From the sequence record NC_054913.1: DNA of 64,000 nucleotides, one strand, 5' to 3'. Positions 16,302-59,162 of this stretch are shown here, piece after piece; the first letter of the stretch is position 1, and each line of letters begins with the position of its first letter. Both the position numbers and the translations under genes were made by a program. The DNA comes from Escherichia phage F2. Under the pieces are notes generated by a model. It was not told the origin of the DNA. It worked only from the letters and a program-made list of their open reading frames with translations, and did not search any database.

Positions 16302-17219
16302 ATGGATTTAGAAATGATGTTGGATGAAGATTACAAAGAAGGTATTGCACTTGCCGACTTTAGTAACATTGCATTGGCAGCCGCATTAAACAACTTTGAA
16401 GACGGCGATAAAATTACTGTTCCGATGGTTCGCCATGTAATCTTGAATTCAATTCGTAAAAACGTGGTGATGTTCCGTAAGCAAGGCTATACAAAATTTG
16501 TATTGTGTATGGATAATGCTACTTCAGGTTATTGGCGTCGTGACTTTGCTTACTACTACAAGAAAAATCGTAAAACCGATCGTGAAGCTTCAAAGTGGGA
16601 TTGGGAAGGATATTTTACTGCGCTCCGTCAAGTTGTTGATGAGATTAAGAAATACATGCCATACGTTGTAATGGATATTGACAAATATGAAGCGGATGAC
16701 CATATCGGTGTATTAACTAAATATTTGTCATTAGCTGGACATAAGGTATGTATTGTTGCATCAGATGGTGACTTTACACAATTACACAAATATCCTAACG
16801 TTAAACAGTGGTCGCCACCACAGAAAAAATGGGTTAAAATTAAGAACGGTTCTGCTGAAATTGATTGCATGACTAAAATTCTTAAAGGTGACCGTAAAGA
16901 CGGCGTTGCATCTGTTCGAGTTCGTGGCGACTTCTGGTTTACCAGAGTTGATGGTGAACGAACTCCGAGCATGAAAACAACGATTATTGAAGCAATTGCC
17001 AATGACCGTTCTCAAGCTGAAGTATTATTAAGTGCAGAAGAATATAAACGGTACCAAGAAAATTTGGTTCTCATTGATTTTGATTATATCCCTGATAATA
17101 TTGCTTCAACCATTATAGAGTATTATAACTCATATAAACCACAACCTAAAGGCAAGATTTATTCATACTTTGTAAAATCTGGTCTTTCTAAATTAACAAG
17201 TGTAATTAATGAATTCTGA
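16302..17219 (+). CDS. rnh: RNase H (5'-3' exonuclease, FEN family)
   Basis: 305 aa, same length as T4 RNase H; WRRDFAYYYKKNR, DIDKYEADDHI, SDGDFTQLHKYPNVKQWSP motifs. Confidence 0.95.
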   Translation: MDLEMMLDEDYKEGIALADFSNIALAAALNNFEDGDKITVPMVRHVILNSIRKNVVMFRKQGYTKFVLCMDNATSGYWRRDFAYYYKKNRKTDREASKWDWEGYFTALRQVVDEIKKYMPYVVMDIDKYEADDHIGVLTKYLSLAGHKVCIVASDGDFTQLHKYPNVKQWSPPQKKWVKIKNGSAEIDCMTKILKGDRKDGVASVRVRGDFWFTRVDGERTPSMKTTIIEAIANDRSQAEVLLSAEEYKRYQENLVLIDFDYIPDNIASTIIEYYNSYKPQPKGKIYSYFVKSGLSKLTSVINEF

Positions 17220-17226
17220 GGTAAAC

Positions 17227-17496
17227 ATGGCTAAGAAAGAAGCAGTTGAATTTAATCAAGATGTGCATGGTGAAGAACTGGCTAAACTAGTCAAGGAAGC
17301 TTCCGATAACAAACTTAAAATTTCTGGTTATAATGAACTGATTAAAGACATTCGTACTCGTGCTAAAGAAGAGCTTGGCGTCGATGGAAAAATGTTTAAT
17401 CGTTTGTTAGCTCTTTATCATAAAGACGCTCGTGACCAATTTGAAGCTGAAAACGAAGAGGTAGTCGAGCTTTATGACACAGTTTTCACTAAGTGA
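17227..17496 (+). CDS. dsbA: DsbA double-stranded DNA-binding late transcription protein
   Basis: In-frame ATG at 17227 gives 89 aa (MAKKEAVEF...) matching T4 DsbA length; the track ORF starts 18 nt earlier inside rnh. Confidence 0.8.
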   Translation: MAKKEAVEFNQDVHGEELAKLVKEASDNKLKISGYNELIKDIRTRAKEELGVDGKMFNRLLALYHKDARDQFEAENEEVVELYDTVFTK

Positions 17497-17812
17497 TATT
17501 AAACCGGTTGATGAGGCCGGTTTATCTGAACAAGAATTAGCAGTAAAACACGATAAAGATGATATCGCTAAATTGCTTGACAGACAAGAAAACGGATTCA
17601 TTATCGAATCCATGGTTGAACAATTTGGTATGTCTTATTTAGAAGCAACAACTGCTTTCTTGGAAGAAAATTCTATTCCAGAAACACAATTTGCTAAATT
17701 TATTCCTACAGGAATTGTTGAAAAAATTACAAGCGAAGCAATTGACGAAAACATGCTTCGCCCATCAGTTGCTCGTGGCGAAAAAACTAATACGTTAGAT
17801 TTCTTATTATGA
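17474..17812 (+). CDS. 33: gp33 late transcription co-activator
   Basis: 112 aa, same length as T4 gp33; MTQFSL.DI.PVDE.GLSE.EL motifs. Confidence 0.9.
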   Translation: MTQFSLSDIKPVDEAGLSEQELAVKHDKDDIAKLLDRQENGFIIESMVEQFGMSYLEATTAFLEENSIPETQFAKFIPTGIVEKITSEAIDENMLRPSVARGEKTNTLDFLL

Positions 17813-18462
17813 TTAAAATACGCATGCCTCCTGATGGAGAACGTTATATTAATGGAAAATCGGTATATAAACTATACTTGATGTGCAAAAACCATTTTGG
17901 TGGTCGGTATGACGTAATCAAATATAACTGGTGCATGCGTGTTTCTGATAATGCGTATCAAAAACGCCGAGATAAATATTTCTTTGAAAAACTATCAGAG
18001 AAATATAAATTGAAGGAACTCACCTTGATATTCATAAGCAACTTAGTTGCTAACCAAGACGCATGGATTGGTGAGATATCAGACGCTGATGCATTAGTTT
18101 TCTATAGGGAATATATTGGACGTCTCAAACAAGCTAAAGAGACGTTTGCTGAAGATGTACGTAACATCTACTATTTCAGTAAGAAAGTTGAAGTTAGTGC
18201 GCTTCAAGAGATATTTGATTATAATAACAACGTTCAGTCGAGCTACATATTCAAATTGCTACAAAGCAATATAATTTCATTTGAGACTTTCTTATTGTTG
18301 GACTCATTTTTGAATATTATAGATAAGCACGACGAACTCACCGATAACTTAGTCTGGCAAAATTATTCTACCAGATTAAAGGCATATCGAAAAATACTTC
18401 AAATCGATGGAAATGCTGCTAAGAAATTGTTCATAGAAACAATCAAATCATGTAAGTATTAA
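17809..18462 (+). CDS. 59: gp59 helicase loader
   Basis: 217 aa, same length as T4 gp59; position between 33 and 32. Confidence 0.9.
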   Translation: MIKIRMPPDGERYINGKSVYKLYLMCKNHFGGRYDVIKYNWCMRVSDNAYQKRRDKYFFEKLSEKYKLKELTLIFISNLVANQDAWIGEISDADALVFYREYIGRLKQAKETFAEDVRNIYYFSKKVEVSALQEIFDYNNNVQSSYIFKLLQSNIISFETFLLLDSFLNIIDKHDELTDNLVWQNYSTRLKAYRKILQIDGNAAKKLFIETIKSCKY

Positions 18463-18490
18463 GCTTTATTTCTTGTGTGTTAAATTACTT

Positions 18491-18498
18491 TATAAATA
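18491..18498 (+). promoter_or_regulatory. late promoter TATAAATA upstream of gene 32
   Basis: Exact TATAAATA in the 32 leader. Confidence 0.45.
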
Positions 18499-18518
18499 AA
18501 TCATACCAGCTACGAGGT

Positions 18519-18575
18519 ATAAGTGTCGTAGCAACCAACTGTAAAATTTAATTAATCTAAATAAAGGCAAATAAA
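18519..18575 (+). promoter_or_regulatory. gene 32 translational operator (hairpin/pseudoknot plus AU-rich unstructured tract)
   Basis: GCTACGA-ggtataagtg-TCGTAGC hairpin with possible loop GGU : ACC pseudoknot pairing, followed by AAAAUUUAAUUAAUCUAAAUAAA before the RBS. Confidence 0.5.
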
Positions 18576-19475
18576 ATGTTTAAACGTAAAAGTACCGCAG
18601 ACCTCGCAGCTCAGATGGCTAAACTGAATGGTAACAAAGGTTTCTCTTCAGAAGATAAAGGTGAATGGAAGCTGAAACTCGATGCGTCCGGTAATGGTCA
18701 AGCGGTAATTCGTTTCCTGCCGGCAAAAACAGATGACGCACTTCCGTTTGCAATTCTTGTTAACCACGGGTTCAAGAAAAATGGTAAATGGTATATTGAA
18801 ACCTGTTCATCTACACACGGCGATTACGACTCTTGTCCGGTATGTCAGTACATTAGTAAAAATGACCTGTACAATACAAACAAAACAGAATATTCTCAAC
18901 TGAAACGTAAAACTTCTTATTGGGCTAATATCCTGGTTGTTAAAGACCCACAAGCTCCAGATAATGAAGGTAAAGTATTCAAATATCGTTTCGGTAAAAA
19001 GATTTGGGACAAAATCAATGCAATGATTGCAGTCGATACTGAAATGGGTGAAACTCCTGTTGATGTAACTTGCCCATGGGAAGGTGCTAACTTTGTGCTG
19101 AAAGTTAAACAGGTTTCTGGTTTCAGTAACTACGACGAATCTAAATTCCTGAATCAATCTGCGATTCCAAACATTGATGATGAATCTTTCCAGAAAGAAT
19201 TGTTCGAACAAATGGTTGACCTTTCTGAAATGACTTCTAAAGATAAGTTCAAATCGTTTGAAGAATTGAATACTAAATTTACTCAAGTTCTTGGTACTGC
19301 CGCTCTTGGTGGTGCAGCAGCTGCCGCAGCTTCTGTTGCAGATAAAGTTGCTTCTGACCTCGACGATTTTGATAAAGACATGGAAGCCTTTAGTTCTGCA
19401 AAAACTGAAGATGACTTCATGAGTTCCTCGTCTTCTGACGATGGCGACCTCGATGACCTGTTAGCTGGTCTATAA
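18576..19475 (+). CDS. 32: gp32 single-stranded DNA-binding protein
   Basis: 299 aa; near-identical to T4 gp32 over most of its length, including zinc-binding Cys/His region and acidic C-terminus. Confidence 0.97.
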
Positions 19476-19482
19476 TAAATTG

Positions 19483-19505
19483 GGAGACTTCGGTCTCCCT
19501 TTTGA
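19483..19505 (+). terminator. intrinsic terminator after gene 32
   Basis: GGGAGAC-TTCG-GTCTCCC followed by TTTTGAG. Confidence 0.65.
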
Positions 19506-19984: not shown

Positions 19985-20045
19985 TTTATAACAAGATAGG
20001 GCTATGTTATAGTAGCCCTATCAAATAAAAGTGAAGGAGAATAAA

Positions 20046-30095: not shown

Positions 30096-30124
30096 TTTAC
30101 AAACTCTCAGGAGCAGAGTATAAT
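30095..30124 (+). promoter_or_regulatory. early promoter with inverted repeat flanking the -10
   Basis: GTTTAC at 30095-30100, TATAAT at 30119-30124 inside AGGAGCA...TGCTCCT. Confidence 0.55.
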
Positions 30125-30152
30125 GCTCCTATGGATAATTGAGGAAATCTAA

Positions 30153-58232: not shown

Positions 58233-58499
58233 ATGAACAAATTAAACTTTATCCGTACCACACTTTCTAACCTTGACAAAGACATCAAAGCTCTGGTAGA
58301 AAAATTTGGTACCAATCCTAATGGTAATGCAGTTAATGCATTGGTTAAGAAATACGAAGCCCTGGCTTATGAAACTGACTTCTGGTGGAACGGTGAATAT
58401 TCTACCCATACCAAAGACAAATCTGGTAACTGGCTGAAAATCCAAGAAAATCGTATTGACTTCCGTGATATCATCAACCGTCGTGTCAAAGCAGCGTAA
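58233..58499 (+). CDS. hypothetical protein
   Basis: ATG at 58233 after AGGAG RBS (88 aa); the track ORF starts 15 nt upstream. Confidence 0.45.
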   Translation: MNKLNFIRTTLSNLDKDIKALVEKFGTNPNGNAVNALVKKYEALAYETDFWWNGEYSTHTKDKSGNWLKIQENRIDFRDIINRRVKAA

Positions 58500-58502
58500 A
58501 TT

Positions 58503-59162
58503 ATGAATTATTTAATTTACAAAATAACCAATCTCATTAATAACAAGATTTATATTGGAGCCCATGCCACTACAGATGTTAACGATTCTTATATGGGTTC
58601 CGGGGTTAACATAGTAAAATCCATAAAGAAATACGGCTTAGAGAATTTTAAAAAGGAAATCCTTTTCAATTTCGAAACATCTGAAGAGATGTATGCTAAG
58701 GAAGCCGAACTAGTTGACGAGGCTTTTGTCATGAGAACAGATACTTATAATGCCGCCTTAGGCGGCAAGGGTAATCCTGTTATAGTAGCTTTACAGGAAC
58801 CTGGGTATCGTGAGATGTTATCCGAAAAGACAAAAGCTGGTATGACTGAAGAAGTTCGGGCCAAAATATCTAAAAAGAAATTAGGTTCTAAAGAATCTAA
58901 AGAACATCGAGAAAACAAATCTATATCAAATAAAAAGTTTTATAAAAATAGAGATTCTCATCTTAAAGGTAGAAAACTATCAGAAGAGCATAAAGCAAAA
59001 ATTAGAAAGAATTCTAATAAAGGTAAGAAATTTGTATTTGTGGATATTTCTATTAAAGGTCATGAATTTAACCACTACGATTACGCTGCCGAATTCTTTA
59101 ACGTATCCGCAAAAACTATAAGAAATTGGATTAATGAACGCGATGATTGTTTTAAGCTATAG
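58503..59162 (+). CDS. GIY-YIG homing endonuclease (Seg-like)
   Basis: 219 aa; N-terminal IYKITNLINNKIYIG...YMGSG GIY-YIG motifs, basic C-terminal DNA-binding region; inserted between capsid genes 24 and 23. Confidence 0.8.
   Translation: MNYLIYKITNLINNKIYIGAHATTDVNDSYMGSGVNIVKSIKKYGLENFKKEILFNFETSEEMYAKEAELVDEAFVMRTDTYNAALGGKGNPVIVALQEPGYREMLSEKTKAGMTEEVRAKISKKKLGSKESKEHRENKSISNKKFYKNRDSHLKGRKLSEEHKAKIRKNSNKGKKFVFVDISIKGHEFNHYDYAAEFFNVSAKTIRNWINERDDCFKL

Follow-up and report, generated by a model that had tools for sequence, protein, structure and literature searches.

The gene 59-gene 32 intergenic region

The leader of gene 32 lies in the gap between gene 59, which encodes a helicase loader, and gene 32 in the window (the whole 64-kb stretch of DNA that was analyzed). 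A preliminary description of this DNA placed the leader at exactly the 113 nt between the two genes. Gene 59 is preceded on the same strand by genes to which the names rnh, dsbA and gene 33 are assigned, and its annotation is the same in RB69 and in other matching phages (Table 1). Gene 32 encodes gp32, which is at once the repressor and the product of the regulated gene. The gene 32 transcription unit ends at a strong intrinsic terminator, which has a UUCG tetraloop and is 7 nt past the stop codon; its palindrome can be read on the minus strand as a terminator too. Small open reading frames within the leader (24 aa on the plus strand, 26 aa on the minus strand) were taken to be non-coding; they lie across the conserved RNA structure, and nothing speaks in their support.

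On nucleotide similarity, the window is that of a Mosigvirus, an RB69-like T4-type coliphage. The 401 nt that comprise the leader and its flanks show 99.5% identity to Escherichia phage vB_EcoM_JQD51 and 94.8% to RB69 by megablast, and all 152 of the 152 matches are Escherichia or Shigella phages of the RB69-like Mosigvirus group.

Table 1. Positions of genes and leader features in the window. Promoter elements and RNA stems are predicted.
Feature	Position	Strand	Remarks
rnh (assigned name)	16302-17219	+	
dsbA (assigned name)	17209-17496	+	
Gene 33 (assigned name)	17474-17812	+	
Gene 59, helicase loader	17809-18462	+	ORF list; annotation shared with RB69 and other matches
MotA-box-like element AAGCTTTA, predicted middle promoter	18461-18468	+	invariant in 9 Mosigvirus leaders
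Gene 59-gene 32 intergenic leader, 113 nt	18463-18575	+	from gp59 stop to gene 32 ATG at 18576
-10 element TAAATT, predicted middle promoter	18481-18486	+	12 nt past GCTTTA; start about 18493
Late-promoter TATA box TATAAATA (-13 to -6), predicted	18491-18498	+	exact match; invariant in genus
Stem 1 (S1) 5' strand AUACC	18503-18507	+	pairs with 18516-18520
Loop 1, single A	18508	+	A invariant in 10 of 10 compact pseudoknots
Stem 2 (S2) 5' strand GCUACGA	18509-18515	+	pairs with 18526-18532; hairpin in MFE and centroid folds
S1 3' strand GGUAU	18516-18520	+	directly abuts S2
Loop 2 AAGUG, 5 nt	18521-18525	+	2 to 7 nt long among lineages
S2 3' strand UCGUAGC	18526-18532	+	pairs with 18509-18515
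A/U-rich tract, 43 nt	18533-18575	+	81% A+U; unpaired in centroid fold
Conserved AACUGUAAA box, AACUGU(U/A)AA	18537-18545	+	just 3' of pseudoknot; from comparison of leaders
Shine-Dalgarno AAGG	18564-18567	+	within the A/U-rich tract
Gene 32, gp32, 299 aa	18576-19475	+	ORF list, homology; repressor and regulated gene
Intrinsic terminator GGGAGACUUCGGUCUCCC, then U run	19482-19499	+	terminator scan

Secondary structure of the leader

Positions 18503-18532 can be modeled as a compact H-type pseudoknot with a 5 bp S1, a 1-nt loop, a 7 bp S2 and a 5-nt loop, in which 12 of 12 pairs are Watson-Crick. The structure belongs to the 5' untranslated leader of gene 32, whose product gp32 is the single-strand DNA-binding protein, and extends from -73 to -44 relative to the AUG; T4-type gene 32 operators likewise have an H-type pseudoknot with abutting stems (S1 of 4-5 bp, loop 1 of 1 nt, S2 of 7 bp) approximately 40-70 nt 5' of the AUG. 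Since the GGUAU strand directly abuts S2, the two helices can stack coaxially. As read from the sequence, AUACC/GGUAU combines with GCUACGA/UCGUAGC in the same way as the two stems do in the gene 32 pseudoknots of T4, T2 and RB69.

The GCUACGA/UCGUAGC hairpin, already noticed in the preliminary description, has 7 bp and a free energy of about -9.9 kcal/mol, and the leader's centroid fold contains no other helix. MFE folding cannot represent pseudoknots, and the z-score of the whole-leader fold (-0.98) is uninformative. The upstream S1 is worth a further -3.3 to -4.1 kcal/mol. Among 100,000 shuffles of the leader, 34 contain the strict Watson-Crick geometry (S1 of 5 bp, first loop of 1 nt, S2 of 7 bp, second loop of 2-8 nt), and on the plus strand of the 64-kb window it is unique, at the gene 32 leader. 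The minus strand has the only two other strict 5+7-bp geometries, at positions 19987-20018 and 58496-58527, which may be due to chance. When G-U pairs and a 4-bp S1 are allowed, the geometry is found in 173 of 5,000 shuffles (3.5%) and has about 30 occurrences on each strand of the window; it is so common in this loose form that geometry by itself is weak evidence.

Phylogenetic conservation of the pseudoknot

In nine Mosigvirus leaders, including that of RB69, the MotA-like box, TATAAATA and the pseudoknot through CAACUGU are invariant, with the sole exception of an A-to-G change in phage moha (AACC-G-ACUGU).

For a comparison between genera, gene 32 loci were taken from IMG/VR, from a tblastn search of a phage collection (2,457 records) and from 21 annotated regions of the matches. 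A loose pattern scan of IMG/VR (CCAG-N5-AGG...AACTGTNA) gave mostly chance matches, with one real gene 32 leader among the matches listed, and a second scan anchored on AACTGT and the gene 32 start yielded no further pseudoknot types. Ten distinct compact pseudoknots from at least eight genera make up the covariation set: that of the window and RB69 (Mosigvirus), T4 and the T2/T6-type leader L004 (both Tequatrovirus), Klebsiella phage Marfa (L015) and a related metagenomic contig (L029), Serratia phage CHI14 (L016), Escherichia phage EcS1 (L017), Erwinia phage Cronus (L023), the Klebsiella K65/KPV15 type (L083) and Dhakavirus LHE83 (L088). The sequences were aligned by hand with N-padded loops because MAFFT introduced gaps into S1 of the raw segments; the padding N was ignored in pair counting.

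In this structure-guided alignment of ten interrelated leaders, 95% of cells are paired in the model with the upstream S1 strand, and 8 of the 12 pairs are changed on both sides. Its covariation score of 0.706, compared with 0.221 in shuffles, is reached by none of them (0 of 500), and every register shift of the model lowers pairing to 22-50%. S2 is 100% paired in the 10 lineages, with four of its seven pairs changed on both sides. The four inner pairs of S1 are also 100% paired, with AU, UA, GC, CG and GU exchanges; the third pair occurs in all five of these forms. The outermost (fifth) pair of S1 is formed in only 4 of 10 lineages.

These comparisons bear on two other explanations of the hairpin. 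The preliminary description made the hairpin the first stem and closed the pseudoknot by pairing the loop GGU (18516-18518) with a downstream ACC (18534-18536). That ACC is 2 nt past the hairpin and is kept in 6 of 10 lineages. Over the same lineages, however, the GGU/ACC helix is only 70% paired, the third pair is lost in 6 of 10, and compensatory changes are found in 0 of its 3 pairs; where the loop is changed, to GGUCA, GGCAU or GGAC, the upstream strand changes with it and the downstream ACC stays as it is. The helix would contribute less than 1 kcal/mol (about -0.6 to -0.9). By the loop-length rules for H-type pseudoknots, one nucleotide cannot span a 7-bp stem, and here the lone linker A18533 would have to do so, which is sterically implausible. 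The downstream pairing is thus very improbable. Covariation, proposed earlier as the check on the pseudoknot, favors the upstream pairing only, so that the classical pseudoknot is supported, with AUACC (18503-18507) as the true partner of the loop, and the GGU/ACC version is not. The other explanation is that a hairpin has arisen by chance in an A/T-rich spacer, or serves as a terminator for gene 59, and has no regulatory role. The frequency of the loosely defined geometry in shuffles and the unremarkable fold z-score would be in keeping with it. Against it are the invariance of the pseudoknot within the genus, the covariation of both helices between genera and the experimental record for the identical pseudoknot sequence in RB69, described below. 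A terminator role is rejected because the hairpin has no U run behind it. The probability left to this explanation is negligible, and a phylogenetically conserved, classical gene 32 pseudoknot is by far the better reading of the hairpin.

Comparison with the RB69, T4 and T2 operators

The RB69 gene 32 has been cloned, and its gp32 represses its own translation (autogenous repression) both in vivo and in vitro, according to Borjac-Natour, Petrov and Karam (2004, Virol J 1:4, PMC535899). The same paper describes plasmid repression assays that included RBG32-delta-op, a deletion without the pseudoknot elements. It reports hypersensitivity of the RB69 leader to DMS and DEPC at positions -1 to -45 and to RNase V1 in the pseudoknot segment. 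Purified gp32 inhibits translation in vitro, and both T4 and RB69 gp32 have been footprinted on the RB69 leader, as stated in PMC535899 (for the footprints, the legend to its Figure 6B) and in PMC3014915. By this evidence, the RB69 operator functions in the manner of that of T4. PMC3014915, a review from 2010, sets the RB69, T4 and T2 operators beside the 2TPK NMR structure and presents a model in which gp32 nucleates at the pseudoknot and spreads cooperatively over a UUAA(A) A/U-rich tract to the ribosome-binding site.

The pseudoknot of the window is identical to that of RB69 at 30 of 30 nt. The two leaders also share TATAAATA, the MotA-like box and the CAACUGUAAA junction. The repressors are identical at 240 of 241 N-terminal and core residues (residues 1-241); the corresponding figure for T4 gp32 is 223 of 241. 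As the pseudoknot is identical and the repressor essentially identical to those of RB69, function can be transferred by homology. The differences are found elsewhere. The intergenic region is 113 nt here and 116 nt in RB69, with an A/U tract that is 3 nt shorter here, and the repeat layout is AAAAUUUAAUUAAUCUAAAUAAAGGC here and AAAUAAAUUAAAUAAUCUAAAUAAAGGU in RB69. Position -8 is a C in place of the U in RB69, which weakens the small hairpin proposed for the RB69 ribosome-binding site (-21 to -8). With these indels and the C at -8, details of the gp32 footprint may differ from those in RB69.

The T4 operator (McPheeters et al. 1988, as cited in PMC535899 and PMC3014915) has an S1, a 1-nt A loop, a 7-bp S2 and a UUAAA/UAAA tract over the ribosome-binding site, as does the leader of the window. 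The distance to the AUG is similar, with the T4 pseudoknot at about -67. However, S1 in T4 is UGCC/GGUA and contains a G-U pair, one S2 pair is U-A in one phage and C-G in the other, and loop 2 is 4 nt in T4 and 5 nt here. A homing-endonuclease gene, segG, overlaps the 5' strand in T4, where the nearest TATAAATA is at -158 and the mature 5' end comes from an RNase E cut at -71.

The T2/T6 leaders have the same topology, and the T2 stems are coaxially stacked in the 2TPK structure (Du 1996; Holland 1999; both as cited in PMC3014915). The sequence of this leader type, which was also found in locus L004, has a single-A loop 1. We take loop 1 to be 1 nt in the T2 NMR structure 2TPK as well. S1 is UGACC/GGUCA, with two compensatory pair changes relative to the window, and loop 2 is longer (7 nt). 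The promoter elements also differ: TATAAATA is 17 nt 5' of S1, and a consensus MotA box with TATAAT directly precedes the pseudoknot. To our knowledge, no viral pseudoknot other than that of gene 32 is well known for a use in translational autoregulation.

The A/U-rich tract and ribosome-binding site

The preliminary description also reported an unstructured AU-rich stretch that reaches the ribosome-binding site. The tract is indeed unpaired in the centroid fold over more than 40 nt 3' of the pseudoknot, and its A+U content of 81% compares with 62% in the whole window. It holds six U(U)AA(A) elements, like the UUAAA/UAAA repeats of T4-type operators, and has the ribosome-binding site inside it. 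By analogy with those operators, the tract is the probable site of cooperative gp32 binding that would occlude the ribosome-binding site. Among Mosigvirus leaders, the A/U tract varies by indels and by one to three tandem copies of AAUAAUCUAA (phage SHSML-52-1, L095, and loci L270 and L269 in comparison with positions 18546-18562 of the window), while the pseudoknot is invariant, so that the length of the operator differs by up to about 21 nt within the genus.

Promoters and mRNA 5' ends

An exact TATAAATA in the leader had been taken as a late promoter, a plausible assignment in view of the genus-invariant box and of an earlier prediction of the RB69 homologue as Pl:147067, with a low score of 7.5 (Nolan et al. 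2006). T4 late promoters have an 8-bp TATA box at -13 to -6 (PMC2988020). A T4 late (gp55) promoter is marked by TATAAATA at -13 to -6, an A/T-rich downstream segment, no -35 element and location on the coding strand upstream of the gene; the exact box of the leader is followed by AAUCAU and is on the same strand as gene 32. A lone copy is no proof, since the window has 15 copies of TATAAATA where 6.85 are expected, approximately a 2-fold enrichment. The box is unchanged in 9 Mosigvirus leaders though the flanking bases vary. An exact TATAAATA is also found 3-5 nt 5' of S1 in Serratia CHI14, E. coli EcS1 and Erwinia Cronus, and as the flanks are otherwise unalignable, this placement gives independent support for a function. 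A gp55-type late promoter at TATAAATA is therefore plausible from the sequence. By the -13 to -6 rule, a primary late transcript, dependent on gp55, gp33 and gp45, would have its 5' end about 6 nt downstream of the box, near 18504, on base 1 or 2 of S1. A start at 18504-18505 would leave only 3-4 bp of S1.

The preliminary description omits a predicted MotA-dependent middle promoter in the same leader. GCTT at positions 18463-18466 corresponds to -30 to -27 in the site ATTAAGCTTTA-N12-TAAATT. Both the GCTT and the spacing fit the MotA middle-promoter consensus, (a/t)(a/t)(a/t)TGCTTtA-N11-13-TAtaAT (PMC1524935), with an A instead of a T before GCTT. The RB69 homologue was predicted as Pm:147081 with a score of 18.1, compared with 7.5 for the late promoter (Nolan et al. 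2006). RB69 has TAAAAT as its -10 element; a 1-nt deletion in this phage and in JQD51 gives TAAATT. A simple sigma-70 scan of the leader, which models neither MotA nor gp55 promoters, found nothing above background.

Promoter-like elements are also found close to the pseudoknot in other genera. Marfa and T2-type leaders have TATAAT about 6-8 nt 5' of S1, and Dhakavirus has it about 14 nt 5'; a good MotA box precedes the TATAAT of Dhakavirus and of the T2 type. In L004, L015, L088, L016, L017 and L023, TATAAATA or TATAAT, the latter in part with a MotA box, sets the predicted start at or near the first base of S1. This placement in most genera parallels T4, where the RNase E cut is 3-4 nt 5' of the pseudoknot and the gene 32 mRNA is the most stable message of the phage (PMC3014915). 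The positions of these elements suggest that the 5' end of mature gene 32 mRNAs is generally at the pseudoknot or a few nt away from it. A 5'-terminal pseudoknot could add to the unusual stability of the gene 32 mRNA.

Elsewhere in the window, two near-identical units resemble early promoters (positions 425-460 and 30099-30134). They have the form (T)TTACA/TGTACA-N17-TATAAT with an ATG directly after, and in each the TATAAT is bracketed by a 7-bp stem (GAGAGCA...TGCTCTC and AGGAGCA...TGCTCCT). They also resemble the promoter-early stem-loop (PeSL) cassettes of T4-type phages.

Proposed function of the leader

There is very little doubt that positions 18463-18575 represent an RB69-type gene 32 translational operator with a compact H-type pseudoknot, fed by predicted middle and late promoters. 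The identification as the translational operator known from gene 32 of T4, made at the outset, holds in that the downstream open reading frame is gp32 and the pseudoknot is identical to the operator probed in RB69. The element is thus already known, and in the form that has been experimentally characterized in RB69.

By homology to RB69 and T4, gp32 of this phage would bind its own leader and repress its own synthesis as follows. When present in excess of the available single-stranded DNA, gp32 would nucleate at the pseudoknot and then spread cooperatively in the 3' direction along positions 18533-18575, over the Shine-Dalgarno sequence and the AUG. Ribosome loading would be blocked on a leader covered in this way, and fresh single-stranded DNA would titrate gp32 off the leader and allow translation to resume. 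The leader would be transcribed by read-through from upstream and from the predicted MotA-dependent middle promoter. Initiation at the gp55-type late promoter would fall on the first bases of S1, i.e., the late message would begin with the pseudoknot.

The predicted late start on S1 also suits a different view of the pseudoknot, namely that it is mainly a stable 5' end that protects against RNase E and exonucleases and gives the mRNA a long life, with repression exerted mostly through the A/U tract. The spacing of TATAAATA or TATAAT in other genera, with a start at or near the 5' edge of the pseudoknot, is consistent with this, as are the position of the RNase E cut and the message stability in T4. 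On the other hand, the T4 literature, as cited in PMC535899, finds both the pseudoknot and the UUAAA/UAAA elements essential to autogenous repression, and the same source describes RB69 autorepression assays with the RBG32-delta-op deletion, from which the pseudoknot elements are absent. Stabilizing and repressing roles are also not mutually exclusive. A mainly protective pseudoknot is accordingly quite unlikely, although less so than either alternative for the hairpin considered above; nucleation of gp32 at the pseudoknot remains the preferred role, to which a stabilizing effect of the 5'-terminal structure may be added.

A gene 32 operator is a textbook element and its presence matters little for this window. 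The gain is a corrected annotation of the pseudoknot strands, of the predicted middle and late promoters, of the Shine-Dalgarno sequence and of the terminator, together with a formal covariation test that backs the classical pseudoknot in at least eight genera. An Rfam search of positions 18300-18700 with E values up to 10 gave only chance matches to snoRNA and Lacto-phage-1 and no family for the leader, so that the gene 32 leader alignments could seed one.

Gene 32 leaders of other phages

The box just 3' of the pseudoknot is a second conserved element. Of 41 distinct gene 32 leaders, 32 contain AACUGU, compared with 4.9% of control 80-nt windows; over the whole window, AACUGU(U/A)AA shows no clear enrichment. 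The loci compared for this box are L006-L014, L020, L025, L026 and L090. Some leaders have no pseudoknot (CC31, Merlin, L020, L025/L026 and Cronobacter LPCS28), and in these the box occurs two to four times with a spacing of about 10-13 nt, partly within the C-terminal codons of gene 59 and in three reading frames. Because it is conserved, is multiplied where the pseudoknot is absent and occurs in three frames, AACUGU(U/A)AA may be a specific operator or processing element and not A/U filler. From the comparison of leaders it can be proposed, tentatively and with more doubt than confidence, that the box is such an element and that the 5'-terminal pseudoknot is both the gp32 nucleation site and a stabilizing, cap-like structure.

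More distant leaders differ in their repeats. The compact pseudoknot was found in 0 of 31 distinct leaders of marine/KVP40-like gp32 genes. The marine and vibrio phages, whose gp32 has 38-49% identity, have leaders with three to five tandem copies of (C)AAUAC(A/G) between a promoter-like region and the Shine-Dalgarno sequence (loci L031-L080, approximately 100 nt 5' of gp32; L093, from KVP40, positions 300-400). The AAUAC repeats look like the equivalent, specific to this lineage, of the UUAAA and AACUGU repeats.

A different, extended pseudoknot is common to Yersinia phage fHe-Yen9-01 and Acinetobacter phage AB-Navy, with wholly different S1 sequences. It consists of an 8-bp S1, a 5-nt loop 1, a 7-bp S2 and a 4-nt spacer, and S2 is GGUGUAG/CUACAUC or GGUGUAC/GUACAUC. 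The extended pseudoknots are at -90 to -40 from the ATG at 1501 in L027 and L028 and at -90 to -35 from the ATG at 389 in L089; L085 has one also. The AACUGU box, the 5'-terminal pseudoknot, the AAUAC repeats and the extended pseudoknot are comparative observations on sequences, and none of them was found in the gene 32 literature examined. The extended pseudoknots and the lineage-specific repeat boxes speak to the call for a broader study of gp32 autocontrol made in the 2010 review (PMC3014915). The extended pseudoknot of Maestro has a 1-nt deletion in S1.
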